Positions 2,400 through 17,901 of a DNA stretch of 17,911 nucleotides are shown piece by piece. The stretch's first letter is position 1; each line of letters opens with the position of its first letter. The stretch is from the IMG/VR virus record IMGVR_UViG_2706795377_000001, positions 116,360 through 134,270 of that record; one strand, 5' to 3'. The notes below the pieces were generated by a model. It ran no database searches and was not told the DNA's origin. It saw only the letters and a list, made by a program, of their open reading frames with translations. Both the position numbers and the translations under genes were made by a program. The stretch is from a virus (lineage: Duplodnaviria; Heunggongvirae; Uroviricota; Caudoviricetes).

Positions 2400-3368
2400 T
2401 CACTCTGGATACAACTCTGCAACTGTATCCACATTCAAGAAATCTCTGAGCGACCACTTGTATTTAATTCCATAATGTTCGCAAATTTCATCTATTTGTT
2501 TTCTCCCAATTTCACCATCTCGCTTATAAAGCTTATATGCCATATGTATCATCCCACTGCGAGTAATGTTCTTTGATGTTAGCGCGTTCGAGTATTCTTT
2601 GAACGCATCCAATTTTTGCATCATTTCTAAACGTGTATATATAGTATAATGACTCACCTTCTTCCCCTCTTTGTCTTTGTTGGTCTTAGCACTTTTTAAT
2701 ATGTAGTCGGATTTTGGAAGCGCAACAAAATCTTTCACTTTTTCGTGATAGTCAAAATTTCCATTCAGCTTTGCATACTCTTCTTCCTTGTTGGCTAGAA
2801 TAGCCATCTCAATTGTTTTATCTTCAACGTCGATTACTCGCTTAATATTTCCTTTCCCATCACGTAGAGAAATTTTATTATTTACTGCATCTATGTCAGT
2901 TATTTTCAATCCAGTTAATTCACAAACCTGCGTTCCCTGTATTCCTTCCCAAAGCGCTTGTACAATAAAACCGTCTTGTCTGTTAACCAATTCACGAAGA
3001 ATATCATCTTTCTCATAAACATTTATGTAAAGTTTGTTTTCCTGTACAAAGCTATAAAAATACTCTTGTCTTCTACGTATCGGATTCGATATATGTTCAG
3101 AAAAATTATTATCTATAGACCACTGAATATATGAACTCAAAACATTGCAATATGTTCTAGCACTTTCTTTAGTTTTTGGCTTTAGTTGATTTTCGATAAA
3201 AATTGCTAAATCTTCTTCACCAAAATTATAGAGGTCTTTATTTCTTTTCTGCTCCATTTCAGCAGACTTTTTAAAAATTCTTGAATACACATCTTTCGTA
3301 TCATCATTATCGAACCTATTTAAAAACAATTCTTTAACTGAGCTGTTGAAAAATACCTCAATGGTCAC
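2400..3368 (-). CDS. mrpR: SPbeta YopR/MrpR (SroF)-like master repressor; tyrosine-recombinase fold, probably catalytically dead
   Basis: 322 aa. Blocks FNSSVKELFL, KDLYNF, YIQWSI, KLYI, LVNRQ, LWEGIQG..CEL, DYILK, LTSKNITRSG, AYKLYK..G are colinear with SPbeta YopR as recalled; lies directly downstream of a DUF262 gene as in SPbeta. GTG start with AAGGGAG RBS. Confidence 0.8.
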   Translation of the reverse strand: MTIEVFFNSSVKELFLNRFDNDDTKDVYSRIFKKSAEMEQKRNKDLYNFGEEDLAIFIENQLKPKTKESARTYCNVLSSYIQWSIDNNFSEHISNPIRRRQEYFYSFVQENKLYINVYEKDDILRELVNRQDGFIVQALWEGIQGTQVCELTGLKITDIDAVNNKISLRDGKGNIKRVIDVEDKTIEMAILANKEEEYAKLNGNFDYHEKVKDFVALPKSDYILKSAKTNKDKEGKKVSHYTIYTRLEMMQKLDAFKEYSNALTSKNITRSGMIHMAYKLYKRDGEIGRKQIDEICEHYGIKYKWSLRDFLNVDTVAELYPE

Positions 3369-5225: not shown

Positions 5226-5261
5226 CATATATTAATGTAATTTAGGAACAAAAAATCACAC
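5226..5261 (-). promoter_or_regulatory. 36-bp repeated promoter-like element, copy 1
   Basis: Plus strand catatattaatgtaa tttaggaacaaa aaatcacac; points into the DUF262/mrpR operon. Confidence 0.75.
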
Positions 5262-5597
5262 ACCCTTTATGGAAAAACTTGGACAATAATAATCCCCAAG
5301 ATACTCTTTTCTGTACTCTTCTAGCACATCAGGATGAATTCTACGAGCGACACGAAAAATTTCATTTTCATCTATTTCTAAGTATTGTGCTAATCGAATC
5401 AGCATATCATCGTTAGGGAAATTGTCTCCATTGATGACACCACTAAACCAAGTGCCACTGACACCAAGCACTTCTTTTGCCATGTAATTCCTTGAAAGCC
5501 TTCTTCCACTTTTGATTTTGCCAGACCTCTTCAAGTGTGACTCTCTTTGTGCCATCTTGCATTCAATATATCTCCCCAACTCTACTGCTATATTCAT
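5256..5597 (-). CDS. XRE-family HTH protein
   Basis: LSRNYMAKEVLGVSGTWFSGVINGDNFPNDDMLIRLAQYLEID HTH pattern; last codons (GTG TGA) lie inside motif copy 1. Confidence 0.75.
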   Translation of the reverse strand: MNIAVELGRYIECKMAQRESHLKRSGKIKSGRRLSRNYMAKEVLGVSGTWFSGVINGDNFPNDDMLIRLAQYLEIDENEIFRVARRIHPDVLEEYRKEYLGDYYCPSFSIKGV

Positions 5598-5698: not shown

Positions 5699-5734
5699 CA
5701 TATATTAATGTAGTTTTCAATCGAAAAATCACAC
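5699..5734 (-). promoter_or_regulatory. 36-bp repeated promoter-like element, copy 2
   Basis: catatattaatgtag ttttcaatcgaa aaatcacac. Confidence 0.75.
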
Positions 5735-5744
5735 ACAAATTAAA

Positions 5745-5805: not shown

Positions 5806-5829
5806 CATCTTAAAGTGTTAATTGTTACT

Positions 5830-6501: not shown

Positions 6502-6669
6502 TTAGTAAGAATCAATGAAATCTTTTGCCTCTTGTAATGTTCCTGCTTCATGCTCAGGATAGCGAAATCCTTCACCATAAATCCATTCATCAGCAGTATA
6601 AACGACGAAATCATTTTCCACTTCCTTGATTTTAAAACCTTTATATGTAATTACATTGCTTTTACTCAT
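6502..6669 (-). CDS. Hypothetical protein, 55 aa (MSKSNVITYKGF...)
   Basis: Start reassigned to ATG 6669 behind an AAAGGAG RBS. Confidence 0.7.
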   Translation of the reverse strand: MSKSNVITYKGFKIKEVENDFVVYTADEWIYGEGFRYPEHEAGTLQEAKDFIDSY

Positions 6670-6703
6670 CTTAATAATTCTCCTTTCATGTTGAACCAAG
6701 GCT

Positions 6704-6871
6704 TTATTTAAATTGTGAATTTATGCAGAACATATATAGCTCATTAACATCCTGATTACTCATTGCATCGAAACCACCTTTATCACGAACAATCTCATCA
6801 ATGATTGGTTTAAGCTTTTTGCTTCTGTCAGCAATTATTTGAATTGCTTTAATCATATCGTGCTTGTCCAT
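6704..6871 (-). CDS. Hypothetical protein, 55 aa (MDKHDMIKAIQIIADRSKKL...; not in ORF track)
   Basis: GGAGA RBS, ATG 6871, TAA 6704; fills the operon gap. Confidence 0.65.
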   Translation of the reverse strand: MDKHDMIKAIQIIADRSKKLKPIIDEIVRDKGGFDAMSNQDVNELYMFCINSQFK

Positions 6872-6908
6872 TTTTGATTCTCCATTCTCAATAAAAGTAA
6901 ACTTCCAT

Positions 6909-7139
6909 TTAGAAGTCCATCATCAACTGCACTCTTTCAAAAGTGCTTAATTCTTTTTCTAAATCAGTAATTTTCACTCTAATCTTATCCATCTTAACCA
7001 TAAGCATGTCAATATCGGTTCCACTTATTTCTGATAGACTAGAATAAAAATCAATAACTTGCTTTGCTTCAACTTCCCAATCTGCAATCCTCTTTTTACT
7101 GTCTTTTTTCATTTTTTGTAACTTTTCTTGATTGGTCAT
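6909..7139 (-). CDS. Hypothetical coiled-coil protein, 76 aa
   Basis: AGGAGGA RBS; helical K/E-rich sequence. Confidence 0.75.
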   Translation of the reverse strand: MTNQEKLQKMKKDSKKRIADWEVEAKQVIDFYSSLSEISGTDIDMLMVKMDKIRVKITDLEKELSTFERVQLMMDF

Positions 7140-7153
7140 TAATTATCCTCCTG

Positions 7154-7321
7154 TCATTTTCTTTCAACCTCTTCGATGATTTCATTCAACGGTTTACGTT
7201 CAGGCTCTTTCATAATCTCAACTTGACCATTTATAATTGGAAAGTGTTTAAGAATATGTTCTTTCATCATTTGTGCCGAATCCTCTGTCGCCAGTGTTAC
7301 AACTACTCTATATTTTTGCAT
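7154..7321 (-). CDS. Hypothetical protein, 55 aa (MQKYRVVV...)
   Basis: AAGGAGG RBS between motif copy 3 and ATG 7321; the longer track start runs through the motif. Confidence 0.7.
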   Translation of the reverse strand: MQKYRVVVTLATEDSAQMMKEHILKHFPIINGQVEIMKEPERKPLNEIIEEVERK

Positions 7322-7348
7322 ATTACAATCCTCCTTAATCTCTTCCTT

Positions 7349-7384
7349 CATATAATAATGTAAAGAAGCGATTGAAAAACACAC
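7349..7384 (-). promoter_or_regulatory. 36-bp repeated promoter-like element, copy 3
   Basis: catataataatgtaa agaagcgattga aaaacacac. Confidence 0.75.
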
Positions 7385-7385
7385 G

Positions 7386-7583
7386 CTATGCTTCAAAAAC
7401 AATAAAGTTGTTTTTAAAATAAGATGATTTAGCTCCACCTTCGGAACCCTTGGCAATTGTTTGGGATTCCCCTTTATCATTGTACTGAATTACAATGTCA
7501 CCATCAGAATTGACAATTGCACCATAATATCTTTTATGAGTTAAATTATCAATACCAGTATCTTTCTTCACTGTTACAATCAT
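7386..7583 (-). CDS. Hypothetical protein, 65 aa (MIVTVKKDTG...)
   Basis: ATGA overlap with the upstream gene's stop at 7580-7583. Confidence 0.65.
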   Translation of the reverse strand: MIVTVKKDTGIDNLTHKRYYGAIVNSDGDIVIQYNDKGESQTIAKGSEGGAKSSYFKNNFIVFEA

Positions 7584-7978
7584 CCGAATACCAACTTCCC
7601 AAACAATGCATATTGTAGGATGCAATCAGCAGTTCCAGCGTCGCCCTGTTCCAAGTCACAATCATGAGGACGCTCAATGCAATTCAGCTTGTAACCATTG
7701 ATAAGTTTGTCCAGTGTGATTACCCAATCTCTATCATCTTCGGTTTCTTCTTTGTCATATAGCTTTACAGGCTTGCCTTCCAGAATTAGTTTGGTTGACC
7801 ATGTTGCCCAAGGCTCCCCCTTTGGTTTTGCCTTCATGTCGTCGGAAGAATCGTCCAAGCCCATCCAGTAATTACTTCCACCTTCAAAAGCAGTAACAAT
7901 AATATCCTCAATATCCTTTTCAGTCAGTGGTTTTTCGATAATTGCAGTCCCTACAACCTTATTTGTAAATTCCAACAT
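7580..7978 (-). CDS. Conserved-looking phage hypothetical protein, 132 aa, acidic (DI...AFEGGSNYW; DA..AD.ILQYALFG.LVFG)
   Basis: ATG 7978 with AAAGGA RBS after motif copy 4; motifs of a type recalled from uncharacterised phage proteins. Confidence 0.75.
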   Translation of the reverse strand: MLEFTNKVVGTAIIEKPLTEKDIEDIIVTAFEGGSNYWMGLDDSSDDMKAKPKGEPWATWSTKLILEGKPVKLYDKEETEDDRDWVITLDKLINGYKLNCIERPHDCDLEQGDAGTADCILQYALFGKLVFG

Positions 7979-8004
7979 GTCTATCATCCTTTTCAATTTG
8001 TCTT

Positions 8005-8040
8005 CATATATTAATGTAATTCAGGAACACAAAAACACAC
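8005..8040 (-). promoter_or_regulatory. 36-bp repeated promoter-like element, copy 4
   Basis: catatattaatgtaa ttcaggaacaca aaaacacac. Confidence 0.75.
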
Positions 8041-8042
8041 GC

Positions 8043-8597
8043 TTAATGTAAAATTGGTTGTTTGTGTTTTGAAAAAATTTCATACAGGCAATTAATGTAA
8101 CATTTTGCATTGTAAATAAAGTTGACTTCAATAAGCTCTTGATGCTCTTGCAAAAGATTATCTAGTGATTCGAAATAAACTTCTGGATGTTTCAATTGCA
8201 GATAAGCTTTTAAAGCAATGATTTCATTTATATCATCCCATTGCTTTGTAATGCCATGACCATAGAATGGGATATAAATCATTTGTTCACCAGCATGTGC
8301 CCCTGTCAACATTTTTACAACACCCAAACCTAAGTCAGTAGCAAGACCAATATCAATTGTTTCTTTAACGTTAAAGAAAACAAAGTCTTCGCTACGTTCT
8401 TTCGGGAAAGGTGTAAAAGAATTTTCTAAAATGGTTTTCTTACCTAACAATCCTTTTTTAGAGAATGTTTCAATTGACATTAAATCAAAATCCTCAGTCA
8501 TGACAGTGCTAGAAATAACAACAAAGTCAACGTCTTGCGTCAACTCTTTAGCGCATATCATTGATTTTACAAAATCGTAAATATCATGACTCATCAT
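8043..8597 (-). CDS. Hypothetical protein, 184 aa
   Basis: GGAG RBS immediately after motif copy 5, ATG 8597. Confidence 0.75.
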   Translation of the reverse strand: MMSHDIYDFVKSMICAKELTQDVDFVVISSTVMTEDFDLMSIETFSKKGLLGKKTILENSFTPFPKERSEDFVFFNVKETIDIGLATDLGLGVVKMLTGAHAGEQMIYIPFYGHGITKQWDDINEIIALKAYLQLKHPEVYFESLDNLLQEHQELIEVNFIYNAKCYINCLYEIFSKHKQPILH

Positions 8598-8606
8598 ATC
8601 AACTCC

Positions 8607-8642
8607 CATATATTAATGTAATTCATAAATGCAAAAACACAA
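8607..8642 (-). promoter_or_regulatory. 36-bp repeated promoter-like element, copy 5
   Basis: catatattaatgtaa ttcataaatgca aaaacacaa (one change in the -35-like block). Confidence 0.7.
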
Positions 8643-8713
8643 GTTCACGCATACCAGAAAATTTCTTACCTTTAAAATCTTGTTCTGTCATTTTACTTTC
8701 CCTCCATTCAAGT

Positions 8714-8905
8714 CTATGAATTACTTTGTGCCATTGGCATATAATGAACGTGTTCAAGACCTTTAAACCTCCATCCTATATTTCGACCTGAAACACTCAA
8801 ATTCCTGCATCGCGCCTTTGCAATAACGATACTTTTTCCATATGTATTCTGTTTGAACATTTGCTCCATATACACTTTCCCATCAATAATATACTCAATA
8901 GTCAT
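8714..8905 (-). CDS. Hypothetical protein, 63 aa
   Basis: AGGAGGT RBS, ATG 8905. Confidence 0.75.
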   Translation of the reverse strand: MTIEYIIDGKVYMEQMFKQNTYGKSIVIAKARCRNLSVSGRNIGWRFKGLEHVHYMPMAQSNS

Positions 8906-8957
8906 ATTATACCTCCTATGAATATTGGTGTAAATAAAAAGCTAAGTTATGTACAAA

Positions 8958-9206
8958 CTAATCGTACTTTACTTGGCTCTCGTATGCTTCTTTTTCGCTG
9001 TGGTAAATATAATAATCGTTTGAATCAGCTTCGACTATTGGTACGTCAGTAACAATCCAAATCTCATCAATTGTTGATTTTCCATCCAGACTTTCGTCTG
9101 GAATAGAATCTAATGAACCATAAAGAAAATCATGAACTAGATAAACTTTCTGTAACATCAATACCGCCTCCAAAAATAATGCTGACTTAACAATACTCAT
9201 CGTCAT
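8958..9206 (-). CDS. Hypothetical protein, about 82 aa (start uncertain)
   Basis: Acidic ORF overlapping the upstream gene's end; ATG 9206 preferred over the track's TTG 9227. Confidence 0.55.
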   Translation of the reverse strand: MTMSIVKSALFLEAVLMLQKVYLVHDFLYGSLDSIPDESLDGKSTIDEIWIVTDVPIVEADSNDYYIYHSEKEAYESQVKYD

Positions 9207-9621
9207 TAATTTTGTAGCATCCCTCAAGTTTAATAGCTAGTCTATAACTAAAAGGATAGAAAAGTTCTAATTCCATTTCAGATAAAATCTCTTTCATTCT
9301 ATTCAAAGATACAAGCCCATAATCTTTTGTCAAAAATTGAGTAGAAGAGGCTGTTAGCTCTCCACCATCATGGATATTGATACTCAATAATCCCACAAAC
9401 TCTTGCCCGATTGCATTTTTAATTATTCCTGGTATTAAAGCGTAACCATCATCATCTTCGCAATCACTTGCATTAACAGTGTCTTCTCCATACACAGCCA
9501 TAAAGCCTTTTTTGAAGTCATTCAATAGTTCATTTTGAAAATTTGGTTCTTCTACTTTTTCCATGTCAATATTCTTTATAATCAACTCAACAACATCTGC
9601 AAACGAATTAAATTTACTCAT
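9187..9621 (-). CDS. Hypothetical acidic protein, 144 aa
   Basis: AAAGGA RBS, ATG 9621. Confidence 0.75.
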   Translation of the reverse strand: MSKFNSFADVVELIIKNIDMEKVEEPNFQNELLNDFKKGFMAVYGEDTVNASDCEDDDGYALIPGIIKNAIGQEFVGLLSINIHDGGELTASSTQFLTKDYGLVSLNRMKEILSEMELELFYPFSYRLAIKLEGCYKINDDEYC

Positions 9622-9627
9622 TGTTAA

Positions 9628-9798
9628 TCATCCTTTCTTAACCCTTGTTTGTAATTTTATCATTTTATTACTGACTTTCATAAAAACATATGGATAACTA
9701 TGTGTAGGTGCAAATGCTTCTATGCTCCAATTCTTAGACATTTCCTCAATTCTTCTTTTTGTTTCCAACTCAGATTTCTTTGTTAACCCACTTTCCAT
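9628..9798 (-). CDS. Hypothetical protein, 56 aa (MESGLTKKSELETKRRIEEM...; not in ORF track)
   Basis: ATG 9798 to TGA 9628; fills the operon gap; moderate RBS. Confidence 0.55.
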   Translation of the reverse strand: MESGLTKKSELETKRRIEEMSKNWSIEAFAPTHSYPYVFMKVSNKMIKLQTRVKKG

Positions 9799-9817
9799 AT
9801 TGCACCAACTTTCAATC

Positions 9818-10225
9818 TTATGATAATTTAGGCTTGTAATCAGCTATGTAAGAAACATTAAAGATGTCGTGGTCATTTGCACAGCCGTGACATAAATATC
9901 CATTGAAAGGGATTTCTCTCGCGTCAATTTCATAAAGATTTATCCAACGTTTTCCACGATATAGTGCTGTTTCTACATTATTTCCACAACCAACGCATTC
10001 ACAAGGAGACACTTCAAATTGTTCACAGTATCCCATAGCTTGTTCTAATGAAGTTGCACTATCCCACAATTCGTATCCATCTTTTTCAACCTGTTCTCGC
10101 TTTATGACAAAACGCTTCTCTTGCTTGTCTGATAGAAAAATCGCATGGGTGTTCCATTGGTCAATTTTTTTTGTGTATATATGTATAAAAGACGTTGATG
10201 GAGCATATGTTTTTGTTTCTTTCAT
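9818..10225 (-). CDS. Hypothetical protein, 135 aa, with C-terminal Cys motifs (CECVGC...CHGC), probable Zn-binding
   Basis: GGAGG RBS; two CxxC-type pairs. Confidence 0.75.
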   Translation of the reverse strand: MKETKTYAPSTSFIHIYTKKIDQWNTHAIFLSDKQEKRFVIKREQVEKDGYELWDSATSLEQAMGYCEQFEVSPCECVGCGNNVETALYRGKRWINLYEIDAREIPFNGYLCHGCANDHDIFNVSYIADYKPKLS

Positions 10226-10289
10226 CCTAATTCCTCCACTCTCTATTATTAGAAGAAAATAAAGTTATAGACTAAAACTGCTCATTTGT

Positions 10290-10505
10290 TCAGTCTTCAT
10301 AATCAGCCCAAGCGCTCATGTCAACTGGTTCATTGCATTTTCCGCAATAAATATTGGCTTCAAACAAATTATCAATATTGTCTGGTTCAATATCATAAAC
10401 CTTGTTGTGGCGCGAACCACCCTTTAAGTCAATTCGCTGTTTAGCTTTCACTGAAACTTCTGTATAAAAAAATCTACTTTCGCCACATGTACATTTATAC
10501 TTCAT
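10290..10505 (-). CDS. Small Zn-ribbon-like protein (CxC...CxxC), 71 aa
   Basis: MKYKCTCG...YCGKCNE; ATG 10505 preferred. Confidence 0.7.
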   Translation of the reverse strand: MKYKCTCGESRFFYTEVSVKAKQRIDLKGGSRHNKVYDIEPDNIDNLFEANIYCGKCNEPVDMSAWADYED

Positions 10506-10607
10506 GCCAATTTCATCTCCCAATAATCAATCAGATTAGTCTAACACTTTATTTTCTCTGAACATCTATTCTGTAACAATAATCGCTACCTTAAATAGCC
10601 GCCACTT

Positions 10608-10847
10608 TTAATTTCTGCGAACCTCATACCCTACAACATTAAATTCATCTTCATCTACTTCATCATAAATGGGTGTAATAATATATAATTCTTCGCTAGC
10701 CTCCATGTGAAATTCACCTGTGCATTTCCAAGACTTGGTGAATGCTTCTCCATCCCAACCATTCAACGCAAATACTTCGCCATCAATTTCCACTAACTCT
10801 ATATTATTGTCATTCCACCAAGTGCCCTTAAATTTAAAATTATCCAT
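10608..10847 (-). CDS. Small acidic hypothetical protein, 79 aa
   Basis: GAGGGAG RBS; about 19 D/E versus 6 K/R by hand count. Confidence 0.8.
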   Translation of the reverse strand: MDNFKFKGTWWNDNNIELVEIDGEVFALNGWDGEAFTKSWKCTGEFHMEASEELYIITPIYDEVDEDEFNVVGYEVRRN

Positions 10848-10891
10848 ATAAAGTCAACTCCCTCTCATTAAAAGATAAAATCACATTTTAT

Positions 10892-11077
10892 TTAGTTACC
10901 TAGATATACCCATTTCGTGCCTTCTGGAGAATATTCCGTTTGATACCTGAATACCCTTTTTTCCTTCTCAACAATATAACGTGAAAATTTACTTGCTCTT
11001 GTTTCATCTGAAATAAAAATTTCACCATTTTTTATTAAATCTTCAACCAACTGTTTCGTTGTTCGATGGTATCCCAT
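10892..11077 (-). CDS. Hypothetical protein, 61 aa
   Basis: ATG 11077; in operon order. Confidence 0.65.
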   Translation of the reverse strand: MGYHRTTKQLVEDLIKNGEIFISDETRASKFSRYIVEKEKRVFRYQTEYSPEGTKWVYLGN

Positions 11078-11118
11078 TGAATCTCAAGCCCCCATTCTCA
11101 ATTAAAGTCATATTTTAT

Positions 11119-11493
11119 TTAACCCTCATCGTCTGACTTTTCTTCTCCATACTCTTCTTTCATCATCTCATCAAAAGTCTGTATTTCTTCAAAGTCGCAA
11201 TCAGGATTAGTGCAAGTATATTTATGGGCGTCCCTACCTTTATGAGTTCCTATATAGAAATTTAATTGAAAGCTGTCTTCATATGTTCTGCATATATCGC
11301 ATTCAAATTCATCATGTTCAAAGTGCCATTTATCCATTGGACTATAACACTCCTCCTCTTCTTCATCGTCAATTCTATCTTCAGGAATATGCTTCTTTAA
11401 GTACTCATCAAATTCTTTGTCCTGCCTTTTAGATTCTTGCTCTTTTTTTCTCATCATTTCTCTTTGCCTTTTAATTGCCTCGTTTATATCCAT
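11119..11493 (-). CDS. Acidic hypothetical protein, 124 aa, with Zn-ribbon (CDIC...CTNPDC)
   Basis: GAGGA RBS; Cys pattern. Confidence 0.75.
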   Translation of the reverse strand: MDINEAIKRQREMMRKKEQESKRQDKEFDEYLKKHIPEDRIDDEEEEECYSPMDKWHFEHDEFECDICRTYEDSFQLNFYIGTHKGRDAHKYTCTNPDCDFEEIQTFDEMMKEEYGEEKSDDEG

Positions 11494-11652
11494 AAAACTT
11501 ATTCCTCGCTTTCAGAATTCCTTTTGAATGTCTTTCAAAGATATTCAAAAGGAGTATAATATCCCTTGCTTGCTTCCAAATATTGCTCTTTTGTTATTTG
11601 AATGCATTCACCAAAGTAGTCATAGCTAATTTCCCTATGAGCCCTCCGTTAT

Positions 11653-11847
11653 TCATACTCTCGTAGCCTTCATGCGACCACTTTTACCAATGTACTTAAT
11701 TACAAATTCCGCACCCAATGAGTCAGTCACAGTTTGACCAATTTGATATTCTCCCTTTTCTACGAAGAAAGTGAATCCTTCCCCTACAATCATTACTGGT
11801 GCGTACCCATTTTCTTCTGCCTTTTTTAAACGTTCCTCATATGTCAT
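11653..11847 (-). CDS. Hypothetical protein, 64 aa (MTYEERLKKAEENG...)
   Basis: GGAG RBS, ATG 11847. Confidence 0.65.
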   Translation of the reverse strand: MTYEERLKKAEENGYAPVMIVGEGFTFFVEKGEYQIGQTVTDSLGAEFVIKYIGKSGRMKATRV

Positions 11848-11918
11848 TTTTTGCTCTCCATTTCTATCCATTAATTTTGATGCTTTGCATTTCAATTTTC
11901 TTTACCATACTCTTACCT

Positions 11919-11954
11919 CATATATTAATGTAAAACAGAGAGAGAAAATCACAC
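11919..11954 (-). promoter_or_regulatory. 36-bp repeated promoter-like element, copy 6
   Basis: catatattaatgtaa aacagagagaga aaatcacac; heads the roughly 3.2-kb run of ORFs down to 8714. Confidence 0.75.
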
Positions 11955-11962
11955 GCTTTGAA

Positions 11963-11992
11963 GAAAAAAGGAGTCTAAAGTTTTAGACTCCT
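11963..11992 (-). terminator. Intrinsic terminator
   Basis: Stem aggagtctaa/ttagactcct followed on the minus strand by a U6 tract, at the end of the Zn-finger gene. Confidence 0.8.
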
Positions 11993-12192
11993 ACGTCTTG
12001 CTCTTCGCATGTCTTTTTTAATTCTCGAATTGCCTGCATATCATTAGAATCAAAATACTTTTCACCACATTGGCTACACTGTGCGCCTTCAACTTTTATG
12101 CTAACTACACCTTGAATTCCTACAGGAACCTCCAATACTTTAGAGGGGACATCTTTGCATCCACACATAACACATTCTTCGATTGTGAACAT
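11983..12192 (-). CDS. YgiT-type (MqsA N-terminal-like) zinc-finger protein, putative antitoxin partner
   Basis: CVMCG...VEGAQCSQCGEKYFD pattern; AGGAGG RBS before ATG 12192; follows a DUF4258-like gene. Confidence 0.75.
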   Translation of the reverse strand: MFTIEECVMCGCKDVPSKVLEVPVGIQGVVSIKVEGAQCSQCGEKYFDSNDMQAIRELKKTCEEQDVGV

Positions 12193-12234
12193 TGCTCCCA
12201 CCTCCTAGCTTCTATTATAATACATATTGACCAT

Positions 12235-12522
12235 TCAATCAATTACTGTTATAATGATGAGTTTTTCAGGATAATATACAGAAACAACTACAGACCAATC
12301 ATGTTTTCCCATAACTCTATAATTATTTTTTCCATAGTATTGATTCGATTCCCTTTCGTTTGATATGTATGTAGGATTCAAGAGAATCTCAACAATGTCG
12401 CGCTTATTAATTCTCCTCTCTTCCATTCGTTCTGTTGCATGTCCTGTCTCAATGATTCTTGCTCCATTGTTAATCATGAAAGCAATCGTTTGTAGGATAA
12501 GTTTCTCGTTCAAAGTGTCCAC
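12235..12522 (-). CDS. DUF4258-like protein, putative RNase toxin
   Basis: TGHATERMEERRI...DI.E.L and C-terminal IITVI match the DUF4258 pattern; true start may be TTG 12513. Confidence 0.7.
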   Translation of the reverse strand: MDTLNEKLILQTIAFMINNGARIIETGHATERMEERRINKRDIVEILLNPTYISNERESNQYYGKNNYRVMGKHDWSVVVSVYYPEKLIIITVID

Positions 12523-12540
12523 CCTTCACATTTGATTCTT

Positions 12541-12576
12541 CATATATTAATGTAAATGACAACAAGAAAATCACAC
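12541..12576 (-). promoter_or_regulatory. 36-bp repeated promoter-like element, copy 7
   Basis: catatattaatgtaa atgacaacaaga aaatcacac. Confidence 0.75.
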
Positions 12577-12577
12577 G

Positions 12578-12666
12578 CTTGTGTTAAATTATTTCACAAG
12601 TTGAATTTGTCAAACAATTTAACACAAGAAGCTCACACCTCTATTATCTCATGAGGTATGAGCTTT
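12578..12666 (-). terminator. Two adjacent hairpins after the 12682 ORF (terminator-like)
   Basis: aagctcacacctc/gaggtatgagctt (about 12629-12666) and a 13-bp IR cttgtgttaaatt/aatttaacacaag (12578-12628). Confidence 0.55.
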
Positions 12667-12681
12667 CGGCAATTCTTATTC

Positions 12682-13053
12682 TTACTCTTCAATTATAAAA
12701 TCATCATTTTCTAGTTTGGTTAACAATTGGTCAACAGCACATTCATAACCAAACCAAGCAAACCAGTTACGAATGTCACCTTCTGGAATTTTTGGTTGTA
12801 TACTAGTTTGTTCAATATACTCAAAAAATGCTTTTTCGATTTCTTCAATATATTCCAAAAAGAAAGCATGTGTATCATGATAGTAAACTAAACCAGATAC
12901 AGCACCAGACACACAACCATATGTGTGAACATCTTCCAGCCAAGTCTGTGCGTCTTCTCCTTCATTTAGCGCATCATCAATGACACGATTAATCAGTCTG
13001 TTATCGCTTTGACTTTTAATTGCTTCCAATTTCTTTGTGATTGTGATTTCCAT
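12682..13053 (-). CDS. Acidic phage protein, 123 aa, with GCxSG..LVYY.DT motif; candidate DNA mimic
   Basis: AAAGGA RBS after motif copy 8; about 26 D/E versus 9 K/R by hand count. Confidence 0.8.
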   Translation of the reverse strand: MEITITKKLEAIKSQSDNRLINRVIDDALNEGEDAQTWLEDVHTYGCVSGAVSGLVYYHDTHAFFLEYIEEIEKAFFEYIEQTSIQPKIPEGDIRNWFAWFGYECAVDQLLTKLENDDFIIEE

Positions 13054-13080
13054 TTTTTATCTATCCTTTCATTTATCTTT

Positions 13081-13116
13081 CATGTATTAATGTAAAGTTT
13101 AGACTCAAAAACACAC
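13081..13116 (-). promoter_or_regulatory. 36-bp repeated promoter-like element, copy 8
   Basis: catgtattaatgtaa agtttagactca aaaacacac. Confidence 0.75.
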
Positions 13117-13122
13117 ACTTTT

Positions 13123-13157
13123 AAAAAAGAAAAAGTGCAAACCATTGGTTTACACTT
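13123..13157 (-). terminator. Intrinsic terminator
   Basis: Minus strand aagtgtaaacc-aat-ggtttgcactt followed by a U-rich tail. Confidence 0.8.
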
Positions 13158-13261
13158 TACACGTCAAGCCCATACTTCTTACACTTTCTATGACTCTCAG
13201 CATGCCTCAAAAAAATAAGTTCTTTCTGTTTTTCGTCAAGCTTGCTAAACTTAACTTCCAT
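13157..13261 (-). CDS. Small ORF, 34 aa (MEVKFSKLDEKQKELIFLRHAESHRKCKKYGLDV; not in ORF track)
   Basis: GAGGTG RBS 10 nt upstream; ends at the terminator. Confidence 0.5.
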   Translation of the reverse strand: MEVKFSKLDEKQKELIFLRHAESHRKCKKYGLDV

Positions 13262-13323
13262 TAATCATAATCACCTCACATGTTATCGTAATTGAATAAT
13301 AGAACTTACACCTCCAATTAAAA

Positions 13324-13501
13324 TTCTAAGATGAACCAACAAAGCACACAAGAAAGAAGGAAAGGGAAAGGGAAAAACTTCCTTATGTGCTTTGTTCAAT
13401 CATCTTAGAAAGTCTAACAAGGAAGCCCAAAGGAAAGGGGTAGGGTTAGGGTAGGGTAAACCTTTGGACCCCCTTGTTAGAAGCCAATCGTAATTGGCTT
13501 C
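13324..13501 (-). ncRNA. Candidate structured ncRNA: three tandem hairpins, two with C/U-rich loops
   Basis: Stems 13324-13334/13400-13410 plus 13338-13348/13386-13396; 13413-13422/13472-13481 plus 13427-13433/13461-13467; 13480-13488/13493-13501 (UACG loop on the minus strand). Lies between motif copy 9 and the terminator at 13123-13157. Confidence 0.5.
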
Positions 13502-13641
13502 ATCTATTACCACTCACTTCCCATATCAGATTGTTATAACAATATTTTTTTTGGCTTTTGTTTTACATTCATTCATAAACTCTTGCAAGATTTGCGAAAA
13601 AGTTTTATCTGTATTATTTTGAGTCTTTGTTTGTGTGTTGT

Positions 13642-13677
13642 CATACATTAATGTAAAACAGACACACAAAAACACAC
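13642..13677 (-). promoter_or_regulatory. 36-bp repeated promoter-like element, copy 9
   Basis: catacattaatgtaa aacagacacaca aaaacacac; 35/36 identical to copy 16; no convincing ORF directly downstream. Confidence 0.75.
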
Positions 13678-13680
13678 ATA

Positions 13681-14100
13681 TTAAGAAATTCTTTTCATAA
13701 CTTTGAATGTTTCGTACTCAAAAGCCTTGTTACATTGTGTTTCATTAAACCCACATGCTTTCAAAACATCATGGCAACCTCTTGTTCCTTCACCATGATA
13801 TCCACCTGATACGCCTTTTAAAATGATTCTGTAACCATCAGCATGGTAAAGACTTAGTGTGTAGTGGTGAAGTGTTGTATATGTCAATTTAGCACAATAG
13901 ACTTTATTCATATCAATATTTTTACGCAATACATTAAAAAAGCGCAAACTGTTCCGAGTACTACCCCAACCGTCAGTGTATGACCATTCAGTTAATATTT
14001 TTACACCACGGTTCAAGTCATTGCGTAATGTCATTGTTTTAATCCCTTGCGTTTGTTCCCAATGAGAGGAGTCTAAGTAAAAGTATTTTGGCTTGTCCAT
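13681..14100 (-). CDS. Hypothetical protein, 139 aa (G.SGGY.GEG.RG motif)
   Basis: AAAGGTG RBS, ATG 14100. Confidence 0.8.
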   Translation of the reverse strand: MDKPKYFYLDSSHWEQTQGIKTMTLRNDLNRGVKILTEWSYTDGWGSTRNSLRFFNVLRKNIDMNKVYCAKLTYTTLHHYTLSLYHADGYRIILKGVSGGYHGEGTRGCHDVLKACGFNETQCNKAFEYETFKVMKRIS

Positions 14101-14160
14101 TTAATTCACCTTTCTTTTTATTTCTTCCTTTATAATATAATGAAAATATTTTTTTAAAAA

Positions 14161-14379
14161 TTATTTTTCTTTTGGGAATATTGCTTGTTGAACGATAGAA
14201 CGAACGAAAGTCATTTCGCCCACTTTCCAGCTAGGCAAGACTTGCTTCATTGTCGTCCATCCGACAGGCTCACCAATATGTCTAGCATATTGCAATGCGA
14301 TTTCGTCATTGCCTCCCTTTGTTGTTGAATCATCATATCCGATGAATAGCCCAGATTTGGTAAGAAACACCAACTTCAT
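14161..14379 (-). CDS. Hypothetical protein, 72 aa (MKLVFLTKSGLFIG...)
   Basis: AGGTGAT RBS and ATG 14379 downstream of motif copy 10; the track start at 14487 runs through the motif and hairpin. Confidence 0.7.
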   Translation of the reverse strand: MKLVFLTKSGLFIGYDDSTTKGGNDEIALQYARHIGEPVGWTTMKQVLPSWKVGEMTFVRSIVQQAIFPKEK

Positions 14380-14402
14380 TATATCACCTGCTTCTATTCC
14401 TT

Positions 14403-14438
14403 CATATAGTAATGTAATTTTCACAGCCAAATTCACAC
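14403..14438 (-). promoter_or_regulatory. 36-bp repeated promoter-like element, copy 10
   Basis: catatagtaatgtaa ttttcacagcca aattcacac. Confidence 0.75.
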
Positions 14439-14463
14439 GCTGAATTATTTTTTCAGCATGCGA

Positions 14464-14489
14464 ATTTGAGTGTGAAAACACACTCAAAT
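14464..14489 (-). terminator. Terminator-like hairpin
   Basis: Perfect 11-bp IR atttgagtgtg-aaaa-cacactcaaat at the stop of the 14484 ORF. Confidence 0.6.
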
Positions 14490-14729
14490 AAATTCGTTCA
14501 AGTCAAGACGTAATTTGCCTACATTGAAAACAATTTTATCAGTTAAATATTTCAGTTTAACGAAAAAGAAGTCACGCTTTTCACCATTGGTTACGTAGCC
14601 AAACACTTTATCGTCTATCCCATATTCAACATGACAAACAGATACACCACTTAAATTTGTTAAGTTGGTACTTGCCATGACTTTTAATTCTCCATTGTTA
14701 TATTTTTCAATCAATTGTTGCTTATTCAT
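14484..14729 (-). CDS. Hypothetical protein, 81 aa
   Basis: AAAGGGGAAGG RBS after motif copy 11. Confidence 0.75.
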   Translation of the reverse strand: MNKQQLIEKYNNGELKVMASTNLTNLSGVSVCHVEYGIDDKVFGYVTNGEKRDFFFVKLKYLTDKIVFNVGKLRLDLNEFI

Positions 14730-14757
14730 ACTACCTTCCCCTTTCGTTATTTAGCTT

Positions 14758-14793
14758 CATATAGTAATGTAAATGAAGTATATAAAAACACAC
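14758..14793 (-). promoter_or_regulatory. 36-bp repeated promoter-like element, copy 11
   Basis: catatagtaatgtaa atgaagtatata aaaacacac. Confidence 0.75.
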
Positions 14794-14835
14794 GCTACAA
14801 AGGATTATTTTTTTATAGTGTGTCTTTATATAAAG

Positions 14836-15456
14836 TTAGACTGCAATTCTTCCATCAACAAAAAATTCCCATTCATTGATTTCGCATATTTCTATGAAAT
14901 TTCCTTCTGAATAATATGTTTGCATATCTTTTTCACATGCCAAAAGCCACCCATTAAGACATTCGTACATCAATTCTTTAAATGTCGTATGTTTGCATGG
15001 TTTTTTAAGGAAATCATAAATAGGTTTCAAAATAGATTCATCCATATAATAACCTGTTAAGACGCAAGACGTTTCAAATGTTACTTTTGAGTATCTTTGT
15101 TTTAACTTGCCTATATTTGGATTGTTTAAGCTTTTTTCTTTCTTGCTCCAAAGAGAATAATACTTTCCTTTGAAAAGTTGATTGTAATAATTGTTGTAGA
15201 TATATGTAGCAAGACGAACGCCTGTCATTTCTTCTATTTCATCACTTTCAAGAAATGTAAAGCTGATATGACTGCCACAACCGCTATAATACCAAGTATC
15301 AACTTTGATTGGGAATATGGTTTCAAAAACATTTAGCGTCTTTTCATTTTCCTCACTGGGAAGATATTCACTATCGCACCATTCATGTAAGGCTTTTGCT
15401 TTTGCCTTGTTACTTAATTCGTCATAGTTATAAATACCAACCTTAATCGTTCTCAT
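14836..15456 (-). CDS. Conserved-looking phage hypothetical protein, 206 aa (MRTIKVGIYNYDELS.KAK.KA...EWEF..DG)
   Basis: AAAGGGG RBS, ATG 15456, downstream of motif copy 12; the track extension to 15600 crosses the motif. Confidence 0.8.
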   Translation of the reverse strand: MRTIKVGIYNYDELSNKAKAKALHEWCDSEYLPSEENEKTLNVFETIFPIKVDTWYYSGCGSHISFTFLESDEIEEMTGVRLATYIYNNYYNQLFKGKYYSLWSKKEKSLNNPNIGKLKQRYSKVTFETSCVLTGYYMDESILKPIYDFLKKPCKHTTFKELMYECLNGWLLACEKDMQTYYSEGNFIEICEINEWEFFVDGRIAV

Positions 15457-15487
15457 GTTCATTTCCCCTTTTTTCCTTTTTGTCTTA

Positions 15488-15523
15488 CATATATTAATGT
15501 AAAGTTGAACAAGAAAAACACAC
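15488..15523 (-). promoter_or_regulatory. 36-bp repeated promoter-like element, copy 12
   Basis: catatattaatgtaa agttgaacaaga aaaacacac. Confidence 0.75.
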
Positions 15524-15578
15524 GTTAAAATAAAATATTTTAGTATACCATTTGAAACTGAATAAGGGGAATGACGAA

Positions 15579-15908
15579 TCATTCCCCTGTAAAATACCAT
15601 GTAATTAGTTCATCATCTGTATGATGGTACATAACTTCCACTTTCAAGCCTACCATTTTCTTATAGGCGTTCAGTTTATCTTTGCTGTATGTATCTAGGC
15701 TCCAATCAAGAACCCATTCACCGCCTTCGGCATCTTTTTCAGATACAAGCCAATAGGCTCCATTCTCATAAATAACATTAGCAATTAGGACTTGCTTATA
15801 AGCTAAGTCATGTACGTTTTTAATCGGTGTAACAGGTTTGCAAGCGTATACGCTAGATGCACCAAACAGGATAGTTAATGTAAAAACTAAAGAGAGAATT
15901 TTTTTCAT
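15579..15908 (-). CDS. Secreted protein with Sec-type signal peptide, 109 aa
   Basis: MKKILSLVFTLTILFGASSVYA: basic N-region, hydrophobic core, VYA cleavage motif; AAGGGA RBS after motif copy 13. Confidence 0.75.
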   Translation of the reverse strand: MKKILSLVFTLTILFGASSVYACKPVTPIKNVHDLAYKQVLIANVIYENGAYWLVSEKDAEGGEWVLDWSLDTYSKDKLNAYKKMVGLKVEVMYHHTDDELITWYFTGE

Positions 15909-15923
15909 ATTGTTCGTTCCCTT

Positions 15924-15959
15924 CATATAATAATGTAAAACAACGTGAGAAAATCCCAC
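15924..15959 (-). promoter_or_regulatory. 36-bp repeated promoter-like element, copy 13
   Basis: catataataatgtaa aacaacgtgaga aaatcccac. Confidence 0.7.
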
Positions 15960-15974
15960 GTTGTTCCGAACCTT

Positions 15975-16247
15975 TTATGCAGATTTAAAGTAGCCTTCTT
16001 TATACCATGCTGGACATTCTTCCTTGTTTTTGTATTGCGCATAATAACGAGCAGATGAATAGTAGGGTTTTTTAGAAGTGATATTGACATATTTCATATC
16101 AGAACGATTATTTGCGTTTTCTGCGACTGTGCATGCTTCATAGTAGGAATCGCACTCGAAAACTAGTTTGTTGATTCTTCCACTTGCTCTACCCCAACCA
16201 GACATAAATTTGTCAGTCATTGTTACATAGTATTTTCTGTTTTCCAT
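15975..16247 (-). CDS. Hypothetical protein, 90 aa (YYVTMTDKFMSGWG motif)
   Basis: AAAGGGG RBS after motif copy 14. Confidence 0.8.
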   Translation of the reverse strand: MENRKYYVTMTDKFMSGWGRASGRINKLVFECDSYYEACTVAENANNRSDMKYVNITSKKPYYSSARYYAQYKNKEECPAWYKEGYFKSA

Positions 16248-16275
16248 TGTTTAATTTCCCCTTTCGATTATCCTT

Positions 16276-16311
16276 CATTTATTAATGTAAAGTTGAACTA
16301 TAAAATCACAC
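16276..16311 (-). promoter_or_regulatory. 36-bp repeated promoter-like element, copy 14
   Basis: catttattaatgtaa agttgaactata aaatcacac. Confidence 0.75.
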
Positions 16312-16332
16312 GTTTGTGTTAAAAAATACTAC

Positions 16333-16503
16333 CTAAATTCTTTCCGCCATATATTCAAAGTGGTCTATCTCTTCTATTTCTGCCTCATAACCATGTTCAG
16401 TCATTAGCCACATTTCTATGCTTGAAAAAGAGCCTTTCGCGCTATGGAGAAAAATTCCCCTGTTAGTAATAACGCGAAAATATCTTGCTGGAATTTTTCT
16501 CAT
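16333..16503 (-). CDS. Hypothetical protein, 56 aa (MRKIPARYFRVITNRG...EHGYEAEIEEIDHFEYMAERI; not in ORF track)
   Basis: GAGGAG RBS immediately after motif copy 15; ATG 16503 to TAG 16333. Confidence 0.65.
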   Translation of the reverse strand: MRKIPARYFRVITNRGIFLHSAKGSFSSIEMWLMTEHGYEAEIEEIDHFEYMAERI

Positions 16504-16518
16504 AGCTCAATATCTCCT

Positions 16519-16554
16519 CATATAGTAATGTAAAATTGAATCAAGAAATCACAC
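16519..16554 (-). promoter_or_regulatory. 36-bp repeated promoter-like element, copy 15
   Basis: catatagtaatgtaa aattgaatcaag aaatcacac. Confidence 0.75.
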
Positions 16555-16589
16555 ATAAATTATTATTTTTTTATTTTGCTTTGGTGAAT

Positions 16590-17228
16590 CTACTCTCGCA
16601 TATATGCTTGTAATTTGAATTCAATGCGCTTGTAAATGCGGTCGCATCTTTGCCCCATGATAATATCAATATCCCTCTTCTTGGTATCTTGCATCATAAG
16701 AGAAAGAACTTTCTTCTCTGTCTCGCTGAACATTGAAGCTATGTCAACGCGCTCATTGATTTTATCAGCAAAATTTCCTGCAATTGACTTTTCTTGAATA
16801 GTGCGAACATCTTTTCTATTTTGGACTGCCTTCATCCCTTTAATGACTGTTTCTTTTCTGGTATATGTAACAGTTAAACGCTTTTCGCGTGTGTAACTGA
16901 TTTCTTTTTCATTTCTAGTGTAGCTAATAGTTTGTTCTGTAATGCTCTCATAACTGTCTTCGATTTCAATTTGCTCTGTATCCCATAAGGGAGCAAGTCG
17001 TTTTAAACGATTTACTTCATTGCGTGTAATGTTTTGAATAGTATAGTAGATAGTTGTATATGGATTTCCTTCTACTTCCATTCTGCCTTCCATTGCTTTG
17101 ACGAACACCTCATTGACAATATCTTCATAAGACATAACTGCTGATAGTCCAAGGCGTGAAGCAATTTGTTTCTTAGCCATTTTCTCAACTGCTTTAATGT
17201 TTGCGGTCAAAAATTCAACTGTTTTCAT
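16590..17228 (-). CDS. Divergent ECF-like sigma-70 family RNA polymerase sigma factor, 212 aa
   Basis: Region 2-like YEDIVNEVFVKAME...YTTIYYTIQNITRNEVNRLKR (compare ECF AEDLVQEVFLKAW...FSTWLYRIARN...DYLRK); region 4-like FSETEKKVLSLMMQDTKKRDIDIIMG...RIYKRIEFKL; AGGGG RBS. Confidence 0.6.
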   Translation of the reverse strand: MKTVEFLTANIKAVEKMAKKQIASRLGLSAVMSYEDIVNEVFVKAMEGRMEVEGNPYTTIYYTIQNITRNEVNRLKRLAPLWDTEQIEIEDSYESITEQTISYTRNEKEISYTREKRLTVTYTRKETVIKGMKAVQNRKDVRTIQEKSIAGNFADKINERVDIASMFSETEKKVLSLMMQDTKKRDIDIIMGQRCDRIYKRIEFKLQAYMRE

Positions 17229-17289
17229 AATTTTAATTTCCCCTATTCCTTTTTTATTTGGCTTTCGTTACAACCTGTTCCCTAGCAGG

Positions 17290-17424
17290 CTATCGAACAA
17301 TAATGTTTCGGTCTAGCTTTACCATATCGTATTTTGTAAGTGCTACACCTTGCATAACAATCTGTCTTTGCTTTGGCTTCTGCTGTTGTTTGTAAACCAT
17401 TTCTAGTTTTTCTTGGAGTGACAT
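17290..17424 (-). CDS. Small ORF, 44 aa (MSLQEKLEMVYKQQQKPKQRQ...), first gene of the sigma operon (not in ORF track)
   Basis: AAGGAGA RBS, ATG 17424, TAG 17290. Confidence 0.6.
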   Translation of the reverse strand: MSLQEKLEMVYKQQQKPKQRQIVMQGVALTKYDMVKLDRNIIVR

Positions 17425-17475
17425 TTTTTGTTTTTCTCCTTTTGTTTTTGTTTTGTGTTCGCTTTGCTTAACTTA

Positions 17476-17504
17476 ATGATAAGCCCCAAATAAAGTACAG
17501 TCAA
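17476..17504 (-). promoter_or_regulatory. sigmaA-type promoter TTGACT-N17-TATCAT for the small ORF and sigma gene
   Basis: Minus strand ttgact gtactttatttggggct tatcat. Confidence 0.7.
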
Positions 17505-17631
17505 TAAAAATATTTATTCATTTTTCCTTTAATATAATTGAGAAAAATGAAAAGACACACCAAACAAAAAATAAATTTTTGTAGGTGTGTTCGACTCGTC
17601 AGGCATTGAATTATAAGGGACGAAACGACTT

Positions 17632-17667
17632 CATATATTAATGTAAAACAGACACACAAAAACACAC
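17632..17667 (-). promoter_or_regulatory. 36-bp repeated promoter-like element, copy 16
   Basis: catatattaatgtaa aacagacacaca aaaacacac; upstream of the sigma operon. Confidence 0.75.
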
Positions 17668-17878
17668 GCACATAGGAGAAAAAATCAAAATGAATAAATA
17701 TGCATTTTTGATGCATAAAAATACATTTACATAAAATACCATTCTAATTGATAATGATTTTCGATTTCATTTTCATAATGGTTTTCATTTCCATTGAGAG
17801 TGATTATCATTCTATTTTCACATAACTAGAATTCTGTGAACGGTTTTTAAGGTGGTACGGGGGGTGGTTTACAGGAAA

Positions 17879-17901
17879 ATATTGATAATGATTATCAATA
17901 T
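17879..17901. promoter_or_regulatory. Perfect Fur-box-like palindrome (TGATAATgATTATCA inside an 11-1-11 IR)
   Basis: atattgataat-g-attatcaatat; weaker copies at 17749-17763, 17773-17787 and 17795-17809. Confidence 0.55.

Follow-up and report, generated by a model that had tools for sequence, protein, structure and literature searches.

Sigma factors encoded by phages are textbook knowledge, and gp28 and gp34 of Bacillus phage SPO1 are reportedly phage sigmas with their own promoter sets. In T4-type phages, promoter early stem-loops (PeSLs) are said to contain promoters that are read by the main sigma factor of the host. Escherichia phage phiEco32 gp36 is a sigma factor of the extracytoplasmic-function (ECF) type with its own promoter set (PMC12276001), and Salmonella phage 7-11 gp47 is a further phage sigma with a promoter set of its own (PMC4331800). 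In phage SPbeta, MrpR is the master repressor and binds to a 15-bp repeated element at promoters (PMC10516654). The DNA analyzed here, termed the window, is the right-hand 17.9 kb (17,911 nucleotides; positions 116360–134270) of a 134,270-bp virus record (IMGVR_UViG_2706795377_000001) with a 324-bp direct terminal repeat. Near its right end, an open reading frame (ORF) for a 212-aa protein, P0001, precedes a 12-kb array of small accessory genes containing a repeated two-part sequence, motif A. P0001 is probably a highly divergent sigma-70 family member, a phage sigma factor that redirects host RNA polymerase to the approximately 16 promoters of this array. On this in silico evidence, a known phage strategy would be carried out here by a rare, unannotated and divergent protein family.

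Motif A has the form GTGTG-N(10–22)-TACATT. Fourteen exact copies, all on the minus strand, are present where 0.12 are expected, and the maximum in 200 shuffled sequences was two. Two additional copies have one mismatch in the upstream block, giving the total of 16 that the initial annotation had counted (Table 1). The consensus is a-G-c-GTGTG-(T/A)TTTT, followed by 11 variable nt and then tTTACATTAaTATATGAAg, and the spacer between GTGTG and TACATT is 17 nt in all 16 copies. The copies are co-oriented with the genes, and a ribosome-binding site (RBS) and start codon lie 20–45 nt downstream. In a genome-wide scan, motif A was confined to 121.6–134 kb of the genome, which corresponds to the window. 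Motif A is unlike a sigmaA promoter, and the region holds no excess of sigma-70-like sites (67 observed versus 59.3 expected).

Table 1. Positions of the sigma-like gene, its domains, its upstream elements, the motif-A copies and the candidate repressor gene in the window.
Feature	Position	Strand	Basis
Gene for 212-aa sigma-like protein P0001, stop included	16590..17228	-	ORF with ATG start, translation
Sigma-domain-2-like helical domain, residues 1–80	16989..17228	-	structural comparison
Long beta-hairpin insert, residues 82–132, three (I/V)(S/T)YTR-type repeats	16833..16985	-	predicted models
Sigma-domain-4-like helix-turn-helix, residues 148–212; candidate recognition helix GQRCDRIYKRIE	16593..16787	-	structural comparison
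44-aa ORF between promoter and sigma-like gene	17290..17424	-	ORF list
SigmaA-like promoter of sigma operon, TTGACT-17-TATCAT, 10/12 positions matched	17476..17504	-	
Motif B copy (GTACTTTATTTGG) in promoter spacer; candidate repressor operator	17484..17498	-	
Degenerate proximal motif-A copy: GTGTG, 19-nt spacer, TATATT, without downstream block	17531..17560	-	
Motif-A copy 16, canonical, inside 324-bp terminal repeat (core 17640–17667)	17629..17667	-	
Motif-A copy, first downstream of sigma-like gene	16527..16554	-	
Motif-A copy	16284..16311	-	
Motif-A copy, upstream block GTGGG	15932..15959	-	
Motif-A copy	15496..15523	-	
Motif-A copy	14766..14793	-	
Motif-A copy	14411..14438	-	
Motif-A copy; 28-nt core identical to copy 16; without clear ORF after it	13650..13677	-	
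Motif-A copy	13089..13118	-	
Motif-A copy	12549..12576	-	
Motif-A copy	11927..11954	-	
Motif-A copy, upstream block TTGTG; orthologous copy in L011 has GTGTG	8615..8642	-	
Motif-A copy	8013..8040	-	
Motif-A copy	7357..7384	-	
Motif-A copy	5707..5736	-	
Last motif-A copy of array	5234..5263	-	
MrpR/YopR-like protein, tyrosine-recombinase fold; candidate master repressor	2400..3368	-	Pfam

TACATT is preferred as the −10 element because several cassettes have the Shine–Dalgarno sequence directly at ATGAGG. With TACATT placed at −12 to −7, conserved T, T and G residues fall at −4, +1 and +2, which, as a lead only, would correspond to the core-recognition-element pattern of bacterial RNA polymerase. 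Two other placements were rejected: a sigmaA promoter with TTTACA as the −35 element has no conserved −10 element at the right distance, and with TAATAT as the −10 element transcription would start inside the Shine–Dalgarno sequence of several cassettes. Few of the array genes have recognizable features, namely DUF7222, DUF4258 and a weak helix-turn-helix (HTH) match. Terminator-like hairpins on the minus strand are located immediately before, or overlap with, several motif-A copies (15937–15967, 15565–15588, 13132–13158, 11969–11992 and 5752–5798), and part of the array is therefore organized as terminator–promoter–gene cassettes.

The phage appears to depend on the RNA polymerase of its host, as no rival polymerase was found. 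The DxDGD motif is absent from all six frames of the genome, which leaves no multisubunit-type or YonO-type enzyme, and no polymerase domain was detected among the ten large proteins scanned. Four of these correspond to a RecD2-like helicase, a ribonucleotide reductase, PcfJ and a weak DnaB-like match; four others, with carbohydrate-binding or lectin-type domains, are probably tail proteins; of the remaining two, one has only a weak HTH match and the other belongs to no family. A separate search with a 1135-aa ORF gave matches to DNA polymerase III alpha-type genes in other phages. As no further sigma domain match occurs in the genome, the 212-aa ORF is the sole sigma or RNA-polymerase candidate found. 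Dependence on the host polymerase, combined with a promoter class unlike that of sigmaA, calls for a specificity factor.

The 212-aa ORF with its ATG start is present as first annotated. The segments resembling sigma regions 2 and 4 that had been ascribed to it are borne out in that two domains are found, in the right order and with folds resembling those of sigma domains, but their sequence scores lie below cut-offs; the segments appear to be real but weak at the sequence level. Among 24,736 Pfam families, the top match of P0001 is Sigma70_r2 (E 0.02; 15.1 bits, where the curated cut-off is 24 bits), covering residues 21–77 and profile positions 11–70 of 71, and P0001 is the only Sigma70_r2 match across the 134-kb genome (E 5.8e-4). 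The NCBIfam model TIGR02985, a Bacteroides-type sigma model, gives 15.5 bits against a cut-off of 126.4. A PHROGs search returned only noise, and neither the region nor P0001 gave any match in DNA and protein BLAST searches of 50,697 phage records, from which the window's own record was possibly excluded. In a protein language-model comparison, 40 of the 100 nearest named clusters are Sigma70_r2, mostly viral, with a score of 0.95 and 171–175 shared features. By eye, DIVNEVFVKA and TIYYTIQNITRNEVNRLKR seem to fit the patterns of ECF regions 2.2 and 2.4.

Two AlphaFold models of P0001 (predicted local distance difference test, pLDDT, 68 and 74; predicted template-modeling score, pTM, 0.38–0.41) agree in having helices at residues 1–78, a long beta-hairpin at residues 82–132 with strands at 82–105 and 108–132, and helices at residues 153–211. 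The best structural matches of residues 1–80 are ECF sigma domain 2, with VIA-align Z of 8.3 and root-mean-square deviation (rmsd) of 2.2 over 73 residues for RpoE (5uxx_C), Z of 8.0 and rmsd of 2.7 over 76 residues for ShbA (9m84_F), and rmsd of 3.0 over 78 residues for sigmaE region 2 (4lup_A). Residues 148–212, the most conserved part of the family, match domain 4 of WhiG (7lq4_A; Z 8.8), sigmaH (3mzy_A; Z 8.6), SigK, SigD, CnrH, SigL, sigmaE region 4 and SigW, with Z of 7.9–8.8 and rmsd of 1.8–2.6 over 59–63 residues; LuxR-type domains score slightly lower (DesR, Z 7.5; EsrB, Z 7.1). For both models, nearly all top rows of the exhaustive structural comparison are sigma factors. Foldseek searches of PDB and BFVD also placed ECF and phage sigmas among the best rows, weakly, and an ESM Atlas structure search gave no row with a template-modeling score above 0.5, one row being a Sigma70_r4_2 cluster. 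The Pfam comparison proposed in the initial annotation thus has Sigma70_r2 as top match below its cut-off and Sigma70_r4_2 unmatched, and the predicted structure appears sigma-like.

ECF sigmas have a short linker between their two domains. The models suggest that P0001 is built in an ECF-like manner from a sigma-2-like and a sigma-4-like domain, with the beta-hairpin inserted in place of this linker. The mean pLDDT of the hairpin per 10-residue block is 51–67 with five sequences and 67–85 with eight, and residues Y103, Y112 and V120–R124 in it are invariant in close homologues.

Each being weak, the Pfam match, the fold matches of the AlphaFold models and the language-model neighbors agree on a sigma-like protein. 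We consider it very likely that P0001 is sigma-like; this is not put more strongly because the Z values lie at the level for which the structural comparison warns of common helical arrangements.

P0001 has four close homologues (95, 88, 60 and 55% identity), and an exhaustive profile search revealed a few remote ones. The family is rare, with about nine relatives among billions of proteins, and a member that is named by its source is a 'hypothetical protein', as is the closest named homologue, from Brevibacillus laterosporus. In all eight relatives that were fetched, the gene heads, or adjoins, repeats of a matching two-part motif, in agreement with the co-occurrence of gene and motif that had been anticipated; the gene is at the head of the array in every lineage with a contig reaching that far. 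Motif A occurs in about 13 copies in L011 (95% identity), 19 in L157 (88%) and at least 20 in L010 (60%), which is a separate 134-kb phage, and in these three lineages the gene heads an array of small genes. The 2.3-kb contig L158 (55%) contains one canonical copy 130 nt upstream of the gene.

In the remote homologues P0006, P0007 and P0008, the helix G(Q/K)R(C/N)DR(I/T/V)(Y/F) and the GTGTGTTTTT box are retained, and the repeats after their genes have variant downstream blocks (TTCCATTAT..ATGA, TACCATATTAGAATGA and TTCCACTATATTATGA). In P0009, encoded in L015, the helix is altered to QYNCQRVIK, and the motif is also a different one, GCGTATTC ... GCGTATTAGTTAATGA; about eight copies of this repeat, consisting of GCGTATTCAAA, 11 variable nt and ATGCGTATTAGTTAATGA, lie right after the P0009 gene. 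Gene and motif thus seem to travel together, and the lineage with the single clear change of the putative recognition helix is also the one in which the upstream box differs. Scans for motif A elsewhere found no multi-copy array in IMG/VR (20 loci) or among the at least 120 GTDB matches listed, almost only chance-level single matches being present in either, and no motif-A array without the sigma-like gene was found in the IMG/VR scan or among the GTDB matches listed. Related-locus searches of IMG/VR and JGI metagenomes found no relatives.

Several observations weigh against the assignment of P0001 as a sigma factor acting on motif A. The Sigma70_r2 score falls short of its cut-off, and Sigma70_r2 is unmatched by Pfam in all seven other family members; more generally, no sigma domain above cut-off was detected in the remote homologues or any family member. 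Neither Sigma70_r4 nor Sigma70_r4_2 matches anywhere in the genome at E up to 10, whereas the HTH family GerE matches residues 166–187 of P0001 (E 0.058), at 13.5 bits versus a cut-off of 23.5. A profile search of PDB sequences found nothing, and Z of about 8 for small helical domains is in the range flagged as a possible common helical arrangement. Motif A is conserved over about 31 positions, far beyond a typical sigma promoter, and a second factor may therefore bind to it. The two boxes of the L015 repeat are direct repeats of one 7-mer, which would also suit a tandem transcription factor. Finally, the lineages that bear on the covariation of helix and box are few, and there is one clear switch of specificity among them.

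The protein-level points among these, namely sequence scores that are all below cut-offs and Z values of about 8, near the background of the structure tool for helical models, together with pTM of only 0.38–0.41, would be accounted for if P0001 were an unrelated early protein in which two small helical domains resemble those of sigma factors by chance, the array being driven in some other way. Such a coincidence is very improbable: three independent methods converge on sigma, the two domains are in the correct order, and the gene keeps its place at the array head in all lineages that can be followed that far.

A promoter-specific activator has also to be considered, in which the HTH of P0001 would bind to GTGTG near −35 and recruit sigmaA holoenzyme reading TACATT as a weak −10 element, much as in MotA-type appropriation by T4 or with a class II activator. 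The two bases required by sigmaA, A at position 2 and T at position 6, are preserved in TACATT, LuxR/GerE-type regulators nearly reach the sigma-4 scores given above, and the direct-repeat boxes of L015 would be explained as well. The C-terminal domain is the best-conserved part, and in the homologue P0010 it is fused to an unrelated N-terminal domain, Phage_Gp111. Against this stand the N-terminal domain, which independently matches sigma domain 2 and is in the right order relative to domain 4, and Sigma70_r2, which is the top assignment both in Pfam and by the language model. Moreover, the downstream block varies between lineages (TACATT, TCCATT, CCACTAT, ACCATATT and GCGTATT); this is expected if a phage protein reads the block, and less so if the conserved host sigmaA does. 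An activator therefore seems unlikely, and a sigma factor that reads both boxes remains the preferred explanation.

The region upstream of the sigma-like gene contains the sigmaA promoter and the motif-A copy that the initial annotation had placed there (Table 1). By itself, TTGACT-17-TATCAT is unremarkable, given that sigma-70-like matches are about as frequent in the region as expected. A sigmaA-like promoter keeps its position before the gene in four other lineages, and equivalents are TTGCAA-17-TACATT in L157, TTGACT-17-TAATAT in L158 and an extended −10 element, TGGTATATT, in L010. The order of a motif-A copy, a sigmaA-like promoter with motif B, and the sigma-like gene is conserved in five lineages with differing hexamers. 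A 44-aa gene is called between promoter and sigma-like gene at the equivalent place in L011 and in L157, whereas L010 lacks it; its small product might act as a partner of the sigma or regulate it.

Motif B, AAAG-C(C/T)AAATAAAGTA(C/T), is a non-palindromic sequence for which a k-mer census gave about 23 copies genome-wide in both orientations (positions in the whole record, G000:C1, include 527, 6086, 8548, 10963, 46613, 46650, 69004 and 116894). Six copies fill the spacers of good sigmaA-like promoters, as in TTGACA-N4-motif B-TATAAT at genome positions 82244 and 93138, and most others lie directly before an RBS. Upstream of the sigma-like gene, motif B is retained in L010, L011, L157, L158 and L012. 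The window also encodes an MrpR-like protein matching MrpR_N_CB (3.1e-23, 82.6 bits) and MrpR_C_cat (3.7e-13, 50.1 bits), both above cut-offs, and sharing 28% identity, over 99% of its length, with YopR of SPbeta-type phages. Motif B probably serves as operator for this MrpR-like repressor, whose binding would keep the sigma-like gene off in lysogeny. Identity of motif B with the SPbeta repeated element (SPBRE) was rejected, as the SPbeta-type phage Goe14 contains only four one-mismatch matches versus two for the reversed control.

Flanking sigmaA hexamers are missing from about 15 of the 23 motif-B copies, which lie 3–10 nt before an RBS, as would a promoter in its own right, and motif B is linked to the sigma-like gene in all close relatives and L012. 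P0001 might thus be a sigma factor for other promoters, such as these motif-B sites, with motif A being read by a small HTH protein of the window or by a host alternative sigma; the downstream block CATTAATA may resemble the −10 element of Bacillus sporulation sigmas E and K. This division of roles is quite unlikely, however, since motif A is always clustered directly downstream of the sigma-like gene and its upstream box changes with the recognition helix. Relative to the gene, motif B is found in either orientation, which suits an operator better than a promoter, and it is absent from L013, L014 and L015, all of which have the gene and a motif-A-type array.

The cascade from sigmaA to a phage sigma that had been proposed is supported by the conserved sigmaA-like promoter, but the overlap of this promoter with motif B makes a third tier likely. 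In L010 and L158, a canonical motif-A copy lies directly upstream of the gene. For this phage, positive feedback of the sigma on its own gene is doubtful, since two hairpins and a terminator-like stem come after copy 16 and the proximal copy, which aligns with the canonical L010 copy, is degenerate. The hairpins and the stem, which has a U-run, occupy the 128 nt downstream of copy 16 (17505–17632, minus strand), with a predicted RNA fold of −31.9 kcal/mol (z −5.2). The 3′ arm of the stem is formed by the GTGTG of the degenerate copy, and the RNA that would start at copy 16 contains no ORF; it may be a small RNA or an attenuator before the sigma operon. The idea that the array leads into the lysogeny genes is not supported, as a hairpin with a T-run (3461–3514) and a separate promoter-like site lie between the last motif-A copy and the MrpR-like gene.

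The following sequence of events can be proposed. In the lysogen, the MrpR-like repressor would occupy motif B and silence the sigma-like gene. Upon infection or induction, the sigmaA-containing RNA polymerase of the host would transcribe this gene from TTGACT-17-TATCAT, and the new sigma would bind to host core polymerase. Its C-terminal domain would then read the GCGTGTG(T/A)TTTT box and its N-terminal domain TACATT, 17 nt downstream. Transcription would start approximately 6–8 nt after TACATT, inside the conserved ATGAAG, so that about 16 promoters of the 12-kb accessory-gene array would fire.

A broader interpretation is offered only tentatively. P0001 could represent a rare new sigma-70 branch with a rigid beta-hairpin replacing sigma-3.2 or the ECF linker, combined with a long promoter spanning the start site, a three-tier switch and at least two orthogonal specificities. 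The tiers would be the MrpR-like repressor at motif B blocking the sigmaA promoter, the phage sigma, and the mosaic array of cassettes; the two natural specificities would be the GTGTG type and the GCGTATTC type, as orthogonal pairs usable in Bacillota. What distinguishes the system is a family invisible to current annotation, an unusual insert, and a regulon that would be confined to the accessory block of a temperate phage. If the assignment is correct, this phage has a compact, testable regulatory cascade, which shows how such phages hold large cargo arrays silent in lysogeny and then activate them jointly, and which provides natural, probably orthogonal sigma–promoter pairs for Gram-positive synthetic biology.

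Alignment of window positions 5200–17000 with L011, L157 and L010 gives blocks of 76–96% identity that are broken by unrelated cassettes, with breaks near motif copies. These mosaic arrays suggest gain and loss of cassettes at promoter repeats, and the presence of shared and unique cassettes in close relatives fits an exchangeable cargo block. L015 encodes a TubZ-type tubulin (2805–3833), and close relatives encode ParA; the phages with sigma-led arrays seem to be plasmid-like prophages.

Other features of the window lie outside the array or its promoters. A 448-aa protein with a GmrSD_N (DUF262) domain, possibly a defense nuclease, is encoded between the array and the repressor gene (3591–4937, minus strand); ahead of its gene are a 53-aa ORF and a sigmaA-like site with an extended −10 element (5168–5141). 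An HTH_3 (Xre-type) gene (1462–1899, plus strand) is convergent with the nearby MrpR-like gene (2400–3368, minus strand), the gene ends facing each other, and both may belong to a lysis–lysogeny control module. Inside the terminal repeat, upstream of motif-A copy 16, are three boxes resembling the Bacillus Fur box (17881–17896, 17793–17808 and 17747–17762) that occur nowhere else in the genome, one of them matching TGATAATCATTATCA perfectly within a palindrome of 18 bp; possible roles are those of a Fur site, a partition site or an origin element. An Rfam scan of the window at gathering thresholds found no family.

In comparison with the sigmas of SPO1, phiEco32 and 7-11, the proposed system similarly has a small sigma that is produced from a host-sigma promoter and redirects core polymerase to a repeated bipartite phage consensus. 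Unlike these sigmas, with which no sequence similarity was detected by tblastn against the 50,697 phage records, P0001 has the beta-hairpin of about 50 residues between its two domains. The promoters are limited to one accessory-gene array rather than serving middle or late structural genes, the consensus runs through the predicted start site, and the phage that encodes P0001 is a temperate one carrying partition genes and encoding an MrpR-like repressor.

The bacterial ECF (group 4) sigmas sigmaE, SigW, SigH and SigL share with P0001 the predicted two-domain build of sigma-2 and sigma-4 in approximately 200 aa, a two-part promoter in which the spacer is fixed at 17 nt and a T-tract follows the upstream box, and, in some lineages of the P0001 family, a promoter copy upstream of the sigma's own gene. 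P0001 differs from them in failing the Pfam and NCBIfam cut-offs, in its hairpin insert, in having no adjoining anti-sigma candidate with a recognizable domain, and in its boxes, GTGTG and TACATT versus AAC and CGT.

The description of the phage as SPbeta-like is correct as to the MrpR homologue, and does not extend to the DxDGD motif of YonO, which is absent, or to the terminase, whose nearest matches are in other large Bacillus siphophages. As in the MrpR/SPBRE system of SPbeta, an MrpR-family protein occurs together with a non-palindromic 13–15-bp repeat at operon heads, several copies of which lie in sigmaA spacers. Motif B has about 23 copies here, whereas SPbeta has 10 MrpR peaks (PMC10516654), and it was not found in the SPbeta-type phage Goe14; no homologue of P0001 is detectable in SPbeta by tblastn.

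As with the PeSLs of T4-type phages, a repeated promoter, sometimes after a terminator hairpin, bounds accessory cassettes that differ between close relatives. Unlike in PeSLs, the repeat here does not resemble a sigmaA promoter, and the array has a dedicated sigma-like gene at its head.

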